A DNA stretch of 64,000 bases from a virus (taxonomy: Duplodnaviria; Caudoviricetes): positions 79,483-143,482 of the IMG/VR virus record IMGVR_UViG_3300043812_000016; one strand, given 5' to 3'. Position 1 is the stretch's first letter, and each line of letters begins with the position of its first letter. The notes beneath the pieces are model-generated. The model made no database searches. It saw nothing but the letters and a program-made list of their open reading frames with translations, and was not told the origin of the DNA. Below are positions 13,453 through 18,227 of this stretch, in pieces. The translations under genes were made by a program, and so were the position numbers.

Positions 13453-13514
13453 ATTTTGTATATTGTAGATCATACCTGATGAAGTTATAATTAACTTGTA
13501 TAGGAGGTTTTAAA

Positions 13515-14681
13515 ATGAGTAGAAGAAAAACAATAGAAGAATTTAAGCAGGAAGTTTACAATTTAGTAGGTAACGAGTATACAGTAAAGTCTAATACATA
13601 CGTTAATGCTCATACTAAGTTGTTGATAATACATAATAAGTGTGGCTATGGGTGGAAGGTTACACCTCTTAGATTTAATCGTGGACAACGTTGTCCCATC
13701 TGCTCTAAAAAGCCTAAGGATAGTGCTGAGAGGTTAGCCTATGAGGTTTTAATAGATACAAATAATAATTGGTATTTAGATTATAATACTAAATCTGATA
13801 TTTTTCTTACTAGTAGGGTTAATCTTATTAATTGGAAGACAGGAGAATCAGTGAATTTAACTTGGAACAAATTTAGGGTAGGAGGCATTAATGACTCATC
13901 TTTTAAATATTTAGTTAGTAGTATTAAGAATAATTCAGTAAAGAAACGAGTTCAGTTAACTAAATTAGCTATTAGTAAAATTACTCCACCCTTAGTATTT
14001 AAACATCATTTTGACTCGATTGTTAATGGTAATTATATGTTACTTAGTCCTTATCAAGGTTCAAATAAAAAGATTAAAGTGAAACATCTTGTCTGTGGAA
14101 ATACTTATTGGGTAAGGCAGGATAAGTTTATTAATGAGGGCCAAAGATGTGCTTGGTGTGCTTCGCATCACAGCATTCAATCCTATAGTAAGAGACTTAG
14201 TGATGTTAGTAAGTCTCGATATATACTTATAAATAATAATGAGTTTAAGAATAGCAAGTCTTATGCTACTTATTTGTGTACTCGTTGTGGACGTAGGTTT
14301 AAGCAACGTGCTGATTTAATGTTGCAGGGGTATGGTTGCCCTTATTGTAATCAGTCTACTGGGGAGAGATTAGTTGATAGGGTCCTTTCACAGGTCTACC
14401 AATTAGAGGAGTCTCAAGATTTTTACTATGGTTATGTATTGCCTAATAAATTACATTTAGACTTCTATTTACCTTCATCTAACTTAGCTATTGAATATGA
14501 TGGTAAACAACATTATGTACCTGTAGACTATTTTGGTGGAGAAGAAGGATTTAAAAAGATTCAAGATAGGGATAGAAAAAAAGATAAGTATTGTAAGGAG
14601 TGTGGTATCAAGCTAATTAGGATTCCCTATACTATTAATACCTATAGAGGGATAAAAGAGCTACTAGCCTCTTACCTGTGA
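13515..14681 (+). CDS. Free-standing homing-endonuclease-like protein: H..CG/CPxC zinc-ribbon repeats + Vsr/DUF559-like PD-(D/E)XK nuclease
   Basis: C-terminal HLDFYLP...AIEYDGKQH...RDRKKDKYC...IKLIRIPY; own promoter TTGTAG-17-TATAAT at 13463-13491. Confidence 0.8.
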   Translation: MSRRKTIEEFKQEVYNLVGNEYTVKSNTYVNAHTKLLIIHNKCGYGWKVTPLRFNRGQRCPICSKKPKDSAERLAYEVLIDTNNNWYLDYNTKSDIFLTSRVNLINWKTGESVNLTWNKFRVGGINDSSFKYLVSSIKNNSVKKRVQLTKLAISKITPPLVFKHHFDSIVNGNYMLLSPYQGSNKKIKVKHLVCGNTYWVRQDKFINEGQRCAWCASHHSIQSYSKRLSDVSKSRYILINNNEFKNSKSYATYLCTRCGRRFKQRADLMLQGYGCPYCNQSTGERLVDRVLSQVYQLEESQDFYYGYVLPNKLHLDFYLPSSNLAIEYDGKQHYVPVDYFGGEEGFKKIQDRDRKKDKYCKECGIKLIRIPYTINTYRGIKELLASYL

Positions 14682-14682
14682 T

Positions 14683-14711
14683 GGGGTGTCTATTAAATTA
14701 GACACCTTTTT
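14683..14711 (+). terminator. Intrinsic terminator
   Basis: GGTGTCTA...TAGACACC followed by a T-run. Confidence 0.7.
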
Positions 14712-14791: not shown

Positions 14792-15473
14792 TTGGCAACT
14801 GTAGCAGGACAAACGGTAAACACGGGTAACCGAATTTATATTATGTGTAAGAACCATTTAATTGCACGTGCTCAAAGTTTGACAGCTAATAGAAGTTACG
14901 GTACCGAAGGGGTATACGAAATCGGATCCATTAACTAGCATAGTGGTGGTTAACAGTAATGTTAATTGAAAAATTCTACTAAACGGGTAAAGCTGAATAA
15001 CTGAATTGAATAGGCTAGTAAGAAAGGCTACGTCCAGAGGTGGATAGAGCTAACCAACCGTTCTAAAACAAAAGACTAACGATTAAGTCCTTATTAGATT
15101 AAGATAAGGTAATGTAGAACCTCTTATAGAGAGGAAGATATAATCTAATCTTTTTAGAAATAAGTAGTTAATATAATGTATGCCAAGGGAACACGTATAC
15201 CTCAAATATACGGGTTCTCTTACACTAGAAAGATTTCGTATGGTACGAGATAACCTTGCATCTAAACAAATGGATATAGCCCATCTGGGAGAAGACATCT
15301 TGCAAGCTGACGTTTTAACCATTTCTGTAATGGATAGCGTTACTAAAATGGTAGTCGAAGCGTTTTACGGATGCAGTGCTTCCACCTACAACACCAGTTA
15401 TAGAGCCAATCAAATCGTATCTGAATCTATTGAGTTTCTTTACCTCAGCTCTTCGACTGGCTCACAGTCATAA
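14792..15473 (+). CDS. Tail tube protein, spliced: join(14792..14931,15179..15473), 144 aa
   Basis: SD AGAAAGGAG, TTG start. Spliced product MATVAGQTVNTGNRIY...RAQS...YGTEGVYEIGSI|MPREHVYLKYTG...EFLYL matches the Twort/K-type tail tube signature. Confidence 0.9.
14932..15178 (+). mobile_element. Group I intron, 247 nt, no ORF
   Basis: Exon ends in U, intron ends in G. P1 CCAU|UA:UAGUGG with U.G; P10 GCAUA:UAUGC; P3 UUCUAC:GUAGAA; P4 AACGG:CCGUU; P7 AGAUUA:UAAUCU; P8 CCUCU:AGAGG; S-like AAGAUAUAAUCU. Confidence 0.9.
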
Positions 15474-15560: not shown

Positions 15561-15643
15561 ATATGCTTTATTTCTTTTGATAAAATATACTCTTGAATGA
15601 TAAATTAATTGGGGTATAATTATATAAGAAAGAAGGAATAGTA

Positions 15644-17491
15644 TTGAAAAAATTAACTTTTGAAGAATTTAATTATAGGGCACAGCGTATGCTAGGATCT
15701 AGTTATGTTTTTTACCCTCCATATAAGGATATGAAAACGCCTATTAAATATAAGCATTTAGTGTGTGGGACTACTGGAACTTTAATTCCTGATAATATTT
15801 TTAGAGGTAAAGCTAAATGTAAGTATTGTAGTATGAGGAGGAGATCTGGTAGACGTATGATAACAGACGATGAGTTTAGGAAGAGGCTACATAAAGTTCG
15901 CCCTAGCGATGATATTATTTTACTTGAGCCTATACATGGTATTTTTAAGAAAACCAAGGCAAAATGTCTCGTGTGTGGGTATGGTTCAAAAGGTGAATGG
16001 ACTCCTCTTCCAGTTAACTTATTAAAGGGTAAAGGGTGTCCTAATTGTGCAGGTAATGCTCCTAAAACACCAGATAGTGTAATTAAAGAAGTTAGAGATT
16101 TAGGGAATGGTGAGTATGAATTATTAGGAACTAAGAGAACTAAAAAAGATGGTTTATGGTTACATTTACTCCATAAAGAGTGCGAAAATGATTATTGGGT
16201 TCGTGACTATAGTTTCATACATGGTTATCGTTGTAAATTTTGTGCTAACAAAGCAACAGGCGACAGATGTAGGCTATCCTTAGACGAAGTTAAGCAACGA
16301 ATTACAAGGGTTGCTGATGGTCGTTATACATATGTAAGTGGTAATTATAAGAACAACCAAAGCCCTATCTATGTAAGGCACAACGTATGTGGTACTGTGT
16401 TTAAAACCACATGGGGGCAACTTAGTGCTAATAAGGGCTTGTGTCCTAATTGTGGGTCTTCTAATGGTGAACAGGCGATTATGAACTATTTAGTATCACA
16501 CAGGGTTAGTTACTCTTATGGCTACTTAATTCCAGACTTAATAGATAAGAAAAATCTTCACTTTGACTTCTGGTTGCCTCAAGTCAATACTGCTATAGAA
16601 TATGATGGTCAACAGCATTTTAAGCCTGTCGATTTGTTTGGAGGTAAAGAGCGCTATGAATTACAGAAGAAACACGATAGGATGAAAGATGATTACTGTA
16701 AGAAAAAAGGTATTAATTTAATTAGGATTAAGTATAATGAAAATATTAAAGATACTTTAAATTGTTATCTTTTACCTCTAGTAGATAAGCTTAGTGATGT
16801 TGATTTTAGAAAGGTAGAAAGTACAGAGCTTAATGAGTTAATGATTAAGTATCATTATTTACACCGTAAAGTGACTACTTCTTATTGTTATGGTTTATAT
16901 TATCGAGGAAGTCTGGCAGGAATGGTAACATATACGAGACCTAGAATTAGCCTTGCTCAGTCAATCTCGCCTTTAGCTAATAAAGATAACACCCTAGAAT
17001 TATCCCGATTATACATAAAAGACGAAGTAAGCCAAAACTTAAAGAATATTACTTCTAAGTTTGTCTCATGGACTTTAAGACAATTAAAGCAAGAGCAAGA
17101 TGGCAACTGGTTTATTATCTCTTTTGCCGATCAAGGTATGCACCATACGGGAGCAATCTATCAAGCTACTAATTTCTTATACTGTGGGACTACTAAACAT
17201 CGTGAATACTCTTGGAATGGATATGGTAAGCATGGCGGTGTATGGGAAAAAGGTCATTACTATAGGTATATGATAATTAGTCCTATCAAATATCGTTACA
17301 TTATGTTCTTAGGATCAAAGACTTTTAAGAAACAAGCCCGTAAGACCCTTAAATTTGATATTGAACCTTATCCTAAACAAGATAGCGTTCACTATTCTGT
17401 AGGTGATACAGAGGAAAGACTAATTCGAGACCGAGAAACTGGTAAGATTTGGAAAGAGTCTGAGTTAGTTAAACATCTAAAGAAAGATTAA
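15644..17491 (+). CDS. Zinc-ribbon-repeat Vsr/DUF559-like endonuclease fused to a Mom-family (GNAT) DNA-modification domain
   Basis: Four H..C/CxxC repeats; HFDFWLP..AIEYDGQQH; then HYLHR...LELSRL...SFAD..H.G.IYQATNF.Y.G typical of Mom-like proteins; promoter TTGAAT-16-TATAAT at 15593-15620. Confidence 0.8.
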   Translation: MKKLTFEEFNYRAQRMLGSSYVFYPPYKDMKTPIKYKHLVCGTTGTLIPDNIFRGKAKCKYCSMRRRSGRRMITDDEFRKRLHKVRPSDDIILLEPIHGIFKKTKAKCLVCGYGSKGEWTPLPVNLLKGKGCPNCAGNAPKTPDSVIKEVRDLGNGEYELLGTKRTKKDGLWLHLLHKECENDYWVRDYSFIHGYRCKFCANKATGDRCRLSLDEVKQRITRVADGRYTYVSGNYKNNQSPIYVRHNVCGTVFKTTWGQLSANKGLCPNCGSSNGEQAIMNYLVSHRVSYSYGYLIPDLIDKKNLHFDFWLPQVNTAIEYDGQQHFKPVDLFGGKERYELQKKHDRMKDDYCKKKGINLIRIKYNENIKDTLNCYLLPLVDKLSDVDFRKVESTELNELMIKYHYLHRKVTTSYCYGLYYRGSLAGMVTYTRPRISLAQSISPLANKDNTLELSRLYIKDEVSQNLKNITSKFVSWTLRQLKQEQDGNWFIISFADQGMHHTGAIYQATNFLYCGTTKHREYSWNGYGKHGGVWEKGHYYRYMIISPIKYRYIMFLGSKTFKKQARKTLKFDIEPYPKQDSVHYSVGDTEERLIRDRETGKIWKESELVKHLKKD

Positions 17492-17612
17492 GGGGAATTA
17501 AGAAAGAGGTATAACAACGAAACTGTTGGAGAATATTCTTTCTTTTTATAATTAAGTATTGACAACCTGTCTATTCTATTGTATTATAATAGCTGTAAAG
17601 GAGTTGTTAAGT

Positions 17613-18227
17613 ATGCGAAGAAAAACTGATAAAGAATTTAAACAAGAATTGCATGATTTAGTAGGTGATGAATATACAGCTTTAGATCATTATGAGAAAG
17701 GAACAATTAAGATTCATATTAAGCATAATAAATGTGGTCATGTGCTATATGTTTATCCTTTGGCTTTTTTACAGAGACCTCACTGCCCTTATTGTAGTGG
17801 TCGCCCACGTTACACCCCAGCAGAGTATAGGGAGTATGTAAAAGAAATGACTAATGACGAATACGAGGTTTTAGATGATTTTGTAAATAATAGGACACCA
17901 ATTCGTTATAAGCATAAGAAATGTGGTACTGTATTTAAGACTCTTCCTAATACCTTTAGTGTTGGGTCTGCTCGCTGTCCTGTATGTGCTAATAAGATTC
18001 GTTCTAAGAAGCAATCCTTAACTACTGAGGAATTTAAGGAGCGAGTTCGTAACTTACCACATGGAGACGAATTCGAAGTTCTATCTGAATATAAAGGCTA
18101 CCACCAACGTGTTACCTTTAAGCATAAGAAGTGTGATACTGTATGGATGACTACCCCAGCCAGTTTCTTTCTTAGTAAACATAAGTGTCCGGTATGTGCA
18201 ATTAATTCAACTAGAAAGGTTAAGTAA
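17613..18227 (+). CDS. Zinc-ribbon-repeat protein without a nuclease domain
   Basis: Three KH.KC..CP.C repeats only; AAGGAG SD; TTGACA promoter at 17559. Confidence 0.75.
   Translation: MRRKTDKEFKQELHDLVGDEYTALDHYEKGTIKIHIKHNKCGHVLYVYPLAFLQRPHCPYCSGRPRYTPAEYREYVKEMTNDEYEVLDDFVNNRTPIRYKHKKCGTVFKTLPNTFSVGSARCPVCANKIRSKKQSLTTEEFKERVRNLPHGDEFEVLSEYKGYHQRVTFKHKKCDTVWMTTPASFFLSKHKCPVCAINSTRKVK

Follow-up and report, generated by a model that had tools for sequence, protein, structure and literature searches.

Type IIG/IIL restriction enzymes (e.g. MmeI) hold a PD-(D/E)XK nuclease and a DNA-modifying domain in one chain, with a single target-recognition domain that serves both the methyltransferase and the nuclease, and they are cellular defence genes. 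Homing endonucleases are usually regarded as pure parasites, which decay once they have become fixed. The subject of this analysis is a phage gene, P0001, located at positions 15644-17491 of a stretch of 64,000 nucleotides (the window, meaning the whole stretch of DNA analysed), which makes up the last 64 kb of IMG/VR record IMGVR_UViG_3300043812_000016 (143,482 bases, rated complete). As in the type IIG/IIL enzymes, a PD-(D/E)XK nuclease and a predicted DNA modifier share one polypeptide, but the modifier belongs to a tRNA-dependent family of the GNAT fold, and the nuclease also occurs without it. On balance, P0001 probably represents a homing endonuclease that is free-standing and of the EDxHD/Vsr-like type, which carries an active Mom domain as cargo in its own reading frame.

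The same general pairing has been described in jumbo phages, where restriction endonuclease (REase)-Mom fusions were proposed to have a restriction-modification (R-M)-like role (Iyer et al. 2021, Viruses 13:63, section 3.4.7, PMC7824862). Going by the published description, these proteins resemble P0001 in combining a nuclease of the restriction-endonuclease fold and Mom in one polypeptide. Jumbo phages, however, exceed 200 kb, whereas the present phage has 143 kb and is Herelleviridae-like judging from its tail and baseplate proteins, which are nearest to those of Lactobacillus phage LfeInf (Herelleviridae; ~50% identity). Furthermore, the nuclease here is of a homing family and bears a repeat DNA-binding array, the Mom domain is optional and the nuclease is swappable. 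The two parts of P0001 each have a characterised counterpart. The Mom protein of phage Mu is a tight dimer that moves glycine from Gly-tRNAGly onto the N6 of adenine, with H58, Y59, R111, S124, D149, R151 and Y159 as active-site residues (2026 study, PMC13219725). Members of the EDxHD family, such as I-Bth0305I and phage Hef, bind DNA through an N-terminal region and carry the nuclease at the C-terminus, and for I-Bth0305I dimerisation is required to make a double-strand break (PMC3239194).

P0001 is a single uninterrupted open reading frame (ORF) of 1848 nt on the plus strand, as are all features given below by window position, and it encodes 615 aa. The start codon is TTG, with a Shine-Dalgarno sequence, GAAGGA (15632..15637), 6 nt upstream of it, and a promoter-like TTGAAT-16-TATAAT (15593..15620) precedes both, the latter being a pattern match only, from a consensus scan. 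An initial annotation, made from the DNA alone, had described one 615-aa frame with DNA-binding repeats, a nuclease motif and a series of Mom-like motifs, and all of these are present in the ORF: HFDFWLPQVNTAIEYDGQQH at residues 306-325, HYLH at 404-407, LELSRL at 451-456, SFAD at 493-496 and GAIYQATNF at 503-511. The protein matches PHROG 559/681/9084 ('endonuclease'), its N-terminal 380 residues corresponding to endonuclease/homing endonuclease PHROGs, and at the C-terminus it matches PHROG 1384, a 'Mom-like' DNA modification protein. Between the two parts is a poorly conserved linker (residues 367-387; 16742..16804; pairwise identity 0.23) that marks a former gene boundary, as it aligns with the stop/start overlap of a two-gene paralogue in the same genome. 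The AlphaFold model of the full-length protein has a predicted local distance difference test score (pLDDT) of 81.6.

The repeats occupy residues 1-272 (15644..16459) and are four zinc-ribbon units of ~67 aa each, with the signature H/C-x2-C...C-x2-C; by their sequence they presumably allow the protein to read DNA sequence, and paralogues match Pfam DUF4379/CapR. They are followed by a Vsr-like, EDxHD-type PD-(D/E)XK nuclease domain (residues 273-366; 16460..16741). A profile search of the PDB with the sequence of this domain returned no significant match, and it was identified by fold comparison only, using a separate model of residues 240-385 (pLDDT 87). With VIA-align, the model matched the catalytic domain of I-Bth0305I (3R3P; Z=10.2, root-mean-square deviation 2.9, 95/98 residues), Vsr (1CW0; Z=9.8) and a DUF559-like structure (3HRL; Z=9.6), the next distinct folds scoring at most 7.8. 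The same structures were among the top matches in Foldseek, although weakly, 3R3P having a probability of 1.00 but E=0.013. Residues E276, D308, H325 and D345 are invariant across 35-49 homologues. The D-to-H spacing of 17 residues is that of D196 and H213 in I-Bth0305I, but the last Asp is spaced differently. By its modelled fold, the nuclease is a homing-type, Vsr-like enzyme of a proven homing-endonuclease family, which is a more precise assignment than, and agrees with, the zinc-ribbon PD-(D/E)XK nuclease named in the initial annotation.

The likeness to the EDxHD homing endonucleases extends beyond the Vsr-like fold and the putative counterparts of the E, D, H and D residues to the order of the parts, with binding at the N-terminus and cleavage at the C-terminus, and to their phage-borne state and association with group I introns and conserved genes. 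There are differences as well: where I-Bth0305I has NUMOD2 (helix-turn-helix) motifs, the present protein has four zinc-ribbon repeats, and in contrast to the EDxHD enzymes it is free-standing instead of intron-encoded and has Mom as an extra, C-terminal enzymatic domain.

The Mom-family GNAT domain spans residues 388-578 (16805..17377) according to its match to Pfam Mom PF25680 (E=1.4e-30; 106.9 bits, where the cut-off is 27.1; covering positions 4-202 of the 202-position profile), which sets its start close to the nt 16790 or so originally proposed. Mu Mom (PDB 8BV8) was matched by sequence (E=7e-10, ~21% identity) and was also the top Foldseek match of the AlphaFold model (E=3.8e-11, TM 0.75 by target), with other GNATs at E-values of at least 7e-6. 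Six of the Mu active-site residues, H58, Y59, R111, S124, D149 and Y159, correspond to H404, Y405, R455, S471, D496 and Y506 in the fused protein; none of these varies among 35 fused homologues, and they occur in at least 105 of 113 stand-alone relatives. From this conservation, the domain is very probably catalytic, with a chemistry that is not proven to be identical to that of Mu Mom. The initial annotation described Mom as an enzyme that modifies adenine, and this can now be updated to the transfer of glycine described above. The phage encodes tRNA-Met and tRNA-Arg and no tRNA-Gly, so a host tRNA would be used.

Mu Mom and the present domain thus share the Pfam family, the GNAT fold, the six residues and an insertion whose position in the fold corresponds, while Mu Mom is a regulated stand-alone gene and the Mom here is fused behind a nuclease, with its modification activity predicted. 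The insertion (residues 512-548; 17177..17287) is variable and occupies the position of the DNA-contacting, helix-turn-helix (HTH)-like insertion of Mu Mom (residues 175-209), without which that enzyme is inactive; it has 38 residues compared to ~50 in Mu and is predicted to form strands and coil. In a tree of the Mom domain, the nuclease-associated Moms form one clade, nested among stand-alone Moms. The insertion measures 38-39 residues in the fused clade against a median of 49 outside it, and it was considered whether DNA binding had been handed over to the fused modules; this is unsupported, as stand-alone Moms with equally short insertions exist.

The architecture was searched for elsewhere among 5.8 billion proteins. 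This gave 28 clusters with at least 85% query coverage and 35-95% identity, all of which carry Mom and nuclease-associated Pfam signatures, and in total ~35 clusters (34-95% identity) have nuclease and Mom as a single chain. Four related viral contigs (L018, L020, L021 and L022), which come from two metagenomes, also have the 1848-nt frame intact and at the same locus. Recurrence on this scale is far more than chance would produce. Pairwise ratios of nonsynonymous to synonymous substitutions (dN/dS) were 0.03-0.14 in the zinc-ribbon, nuclease and Mom segments wherever substitutions were numerous enough; excepted are a few very close pairs, with too few substitutions in the short nuclease segment for an estimate, and one nuclease-segment comparison that was higher. 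Strong purifying selection acts on every part of the fused gene. Across the fused proteins, conservation is highest in the Mom core (pairwise identity 0.79) and lowest in the zinc ribbons (0.31-0.39).

No near-identical DNA was found when the region was compared to deposited phages by megablast, and none of ~50,000 deposited phage genomes holds a member of the fused clade, the closest Mom there being 35% identical. The clade is so far known from metagenomes only, without a cultured representative. Two groups of database matches extend beyond the nuclease domain without a Pfam Mom match and were rejected as instances of the same fusion: that of Bacillus phage Internexus (84% coverage) and those annotated as 'homing endonuclease' in Campylobacter phages.

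Mom behaves as a module that is detachable from, and re-partnered with, the nuclease. Two contigs (L024 and L025) have nuclease-only orthologues (60-63% aa identity) at the site after the tail-tube gene, and between L009 and L025 the difference is a clean, in-frame indel of 733 bp that corresponds exactly to the Mom domain and has homologous flanks. The complete genome of LfeInf encodes a homologue of the nuclease (~31% identical) and no Mom. Among deposited phage records, 721 match the full-length query, mostly through the nuclease part, versus 268 that match the Mom domain; for Staphylococcus phages the numbers are 196 (almost all via the nuclease/zinc-ribbon part) versus 13.

A second cassette is located directly after the major capsid gene of the same genome, outside the window (G000:C1:65368-67718; L002:437-2787), and there a 378-aa nuclease gene overlaps a 405-aa Mom-NUMOD gene by ATGA. 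In contig L012 the same after-capsid cassette is a single 721-aa protein (P0026), in which the Mom-NUMOD part is 93% identical to that of the second cassette (counted from an internal Met) and the nuclease 36%; the nucleases that are paired with these near-identical Moms also differ in their zinc-ribbon counts. At the after-capsid site of L026 and L027, the C-terminus of Mom is fused to an I-HmuI-like NUMOD4-HNH homing module, and other Mom proteins bear N-terminal HNH or C-terminal GIY-YIG modules, the one with GIY-YIG being more distant. The gene upstream of Mom in L026 and L027, which overlaps it by 4 bp, encodes a 378-aa CapR-type zinc-ribbon protein that is probably an EDxHD-type nuclease, and Mom is there sandwiched between two different homing nucleases (L026:3868-6509, L027:3868-6509). 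In Listeria phage LP-026 (NC_024375.1), an unannotated stretch of 1.8 kb directly 3' of a Mom-like gene (L015:3871-5699) matches the zinc-ribbon/nuclease part and may represent a homing nuclease that went unannotated or has decayed, in reversed order.

The two Mom copies of the present genome share DNA blocks of ~95% identity that flank an insertion of 30 residues; this insertion and the N-terminus are divergent. Each of the two other complete genomes searched in this lineage likewise has two Mom copies. The mosaic of ~95% blocks and the retention of two copies suggest, at the level of sequence, that gene conversion occurs between them and that they possibly have different sequence preferences.

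The site of insertion is consistent with a homing gene. The 960 bp preceding the fused gene hold the only detectable tail-tube gene of the phage (14792..15473), the product of which is homologous to the tube protein of the Phi812/Twort type. Searching with the intronless tube protein of L009 by tblastn showed that the gene is in two exons (14792-14931 and 15179-15473), and that 247 nt interrupt the match precisely at the junction of codons 47 and 48. These 247 nt (14932..15178) are a candidate group I intron without an ORF. They match RF00028 at 16.7 bits and E=0.09, which is below the gathering threshold, and the splice-site rule is obeyed, with U before the 5' splice site and G as the last base of the intron. 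At gathering thresholds, Rfam and a tRNA scan found nothing within the window, the intron surfacing only below threshold. Four relatives have the same tube intron and a second, related one near codon 9 (RF00028, 31.5 bits, E=4.6e-6). The homing nuclease is likely to have the tail-tube gene as its neighbourhood or its target. In all, the composite gene has two insertion sites; it lies after the tube gene here and in L009-L011 (where the tube gene is intronless), and after the major capsid gene in L012, in L013 and in the second cassette of this genome.

Free-standing homing genes are known to occur beside conserved genes, and one of them can take part in collaborative homing with an intron that lacks an ORF (PMC6083498). 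As the fused gene adjoins a highly conserved gene that bears a candidate group I intron, its arrangement is that described as intronless or collaborative homing (PMC6083498). The example of F-CphI and the psbA intron of cyanophage S-PM2 (PMC6083498) is similar in that a free nuclease gene is found beside a conserved gene split by an ORF-less group I intron; F-CphI, however, has the Endo VII fold and no cargo domain, whereas here a Vsr-like nuclease is joined to Mom.

The nuclease family is also mobile in this genome, which has eight ORFs with the domain and one more with zinc ribbons only. Directly upstream of the tube gene is a 1.25-kb cassette (13457..14705) with a terminator-like hairpin and a gene (13515-14681; P0002) for a free-standing 388-aa zinc-ribbon/Vsr-like nuclease. 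The cassette is a clean block that is absent from L018, L020 and L022, and L021 has a 42%-identical gene in its place. It is a textbook optional homing gene.

Our preferred reading of P0001, a free-standing EDxHD/Vsr-like homing endonuclease with an active Mom cargo, is held with moderate confidence and would operate as follows. In a mixed infection, the nuclease would cut the tube-gene region of related phages that do not have the element, and repair would then copy the whole gene, Mom included, into the cut phage, by intronless or 'collaborative' homing in which the carrier would be protected by the intron or by local sequence differences. Mom would meanwhile use Gly-tRNAGly of the host to hypermodify adenines of the phage, as a shield against host restriction. 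The passenger would in this way keep the selfish driver intact, and the driver would spread the passenger. Mom is downstream in the frame and has no start codon of its own, so a frameshift or nonsense mutation in the nuclease would also destroy Mom; that such mutations would kill both may be the reason for a constraint that is unusually strong for a homing gene.

Several observations weigh against this reading of homing with a cargo. The nuclease-only genes of L024 and L025 are known from short contigs, and Mom could sit elsewhere in those genomes. No empty-site allele for the whole fused gene was found among the four closest relatives, all of which carry the gene. Residue R151, which is essential in Mu Mom, is G498 here, and the DNA-contacting insertion is ~12 residues shorter than in Mu Mom, so that the chemistry or the substrate may differ. 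Lastly, Mom is fused in frame, on either side, to three unrelated classes of homing nuclease, which exceeds simple adjacency and may mean cooperation between the two activities. In such a case, Mom tethered by the zinc ribbons would set a tRNA-derived mark on adenines at or close to the long target of the nuclease, so that the carrier is immune and unmarked alleles of a co-infecting phage are cut and converted. This cooperation would explain the repeated in-frame fusions of Mom to EDxHD, HNH and GIY-YIG modules and, if true, would constitute a one-polypeptide, non-methyl 'self-marking' device for homing or restriction, but we think it rather unlikely.

The initial annotation had gone further and presented the gene as a one-gene R-M-like element, its alternative being a homing nuclease that rides on an anti-restriction gene. 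In the first of these, Mom would mark the phage's own adenines and the nuclease, unable to cut marked DNA, would destroy any host or superinfecting-phage DNA that lacks the mark. It is consistent with the presence of nuclease and DNA modifier in the same polypeptide, where the catalytic residues of both are invariant, and with Mom having been joined, independently and repeatedly, to nucleases of three superfamilies in either orientation, much as the methyltransferases of R-M systems are found with many nuclease folds. The three complete genomes of the lineage also have two Moms each, all in long frames with or beside nuclease modules, and the same inference has been published for the jumbo-phage REase-Mom fusions (PMC7824862), so that this headline was not new. 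It is nevertheless disfavoured, and we judge it improbable. Orthologous nucleases do without the Mom module at the same locus (in short contigs), as does the nuclease homologue in the complete, Mom-less LfeInf genome, and in the majority of phage records with this nuclease family no Mom is seen. Near-identical Moms are paired with nucleases that are only 36% identical and have differing numbers of zinc ribbons, and the specificities of the two are therefore not visibly matched. From the four-module array and the homing family one would expect a site that is long and rare, a poor basis for a general restriction enzyme, and with the intron of the neighbouring tube gene there is a conventional way to self-immunity. 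The homing alternative, with an anti-restriction gene carried along, is the part of the initial proposal that is now favoured, because of the homing family, the mobile paralogues, the nuclease-only orthologues and the presence of a nuclease homologue in LfeInf, which lacks Mom.

A further explanation is that the Mom-like domain has been re-purposed, as a dimerisation domain or DNA clamp or to acylate a target other than phage DNA, and provides no protective modification. In its favour are the tight dimer of Mu Mom and the dimerisation that I-Bth0305I requires for a double-strand break, and the absence of R151 and the shortened insertion, which is not predicted to be helical, could be read in the same way. 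However, the R151 position is G, S, A, N, K or E across the 168 closest family members, fused or not, and both this difference and the short insertion are common to many stand-alone Mom-like proteins. R151 is thus a feature of the Mu lineage and not of the whole family, and the exact chemistry may differ here; three residues further on, His501 (R154 in Mu) is nearly invariant in the subfamily. The other six catalytic-site residues are invariant, or nearly so, in fused and stand-alone proteins alike and the core is the most conserved part; a domain with nothing but a structural role would not be expected to show this, and the nuclease-only orthologues do without the domain. We therefore regard re-purposing as quite unlikely. 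The fusion could also have been produced by an assembly or sequencing error, with a false indel joining two adjacent genes; a two-gene version (with the ATGA overlap) exists at another locus in the same genome, and a one-base error could mimic a fusion. The fusion proved to be genuine. The identical frame recurs in four other contigs of two metagenomes and the architecture in dozens of independent assemblies, down to ~34% identity, and purifying selection continues across the junction, so that an indel artefact is excluded for all practical purposes.

The components of P0001 and the general pairing of a nuclease and Mom were already known. What is new is that the nuclease is of the homing type, that Mom is gained, lost and re-partnered as a module, that the gene is linked to a tube gene with an intron and that the fused clade has no cultured member. 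In contrast to the usual view of homing endonucleases, this homing gene has, going by its constraint, kept its own activity along with a probably beneficial Mom in frame, over a divergence to ~34% identity. It therefore provides a natural system in which to ask whether a selfish driver and a useful cargo can stabilise each other, and whether adenine hypermodification of the Mom type, the tRNA-dependent chemistry of which was solved only in 2026, operates in phages of Gram-positive bacteria. It is also a direct test case for the published idea of an R-M-like weapon between phages.

Downstream of the fused gene is a zinc-ribbon-only paralogue (17613..18227) with three repeats and no nuclease domain, as determined from Pfam and PHROG matches. 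The gene has a separate promoter-like site close to the consensus (17559-17587) and is 85-98% conserved in the relatives, although its match in L022 consists of overlapping pieces, which suggests a disrupted frame. This gene may be a decayed homing gene or else a DNA-binding regulator.

The position of the tube gene varies. Here the sole detectable copy is ~19 kb downstream of the sheath gene (G000:C1:73442-76646 versus 94274-94952), while in L009, L024 and L025 it is either near the sheath gene or precedes genes for 204-aa and 331-aa proteins that in this phage follow the sheath gene. As its position differs among relatives, the nucleases that flank the tube gene seem to have travelled with it. 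The contigs L009 and L010 are otherwise near-identical, but in the stretch from the 272-aa gene to the tube gene an EcoRI-methylase-like gene is called in L009 (L009:6046-7026) and no gene at all in L010; this interval was compared by gene calls alone, and it would represent another optional DNA-modification gene in the neighbourhood.

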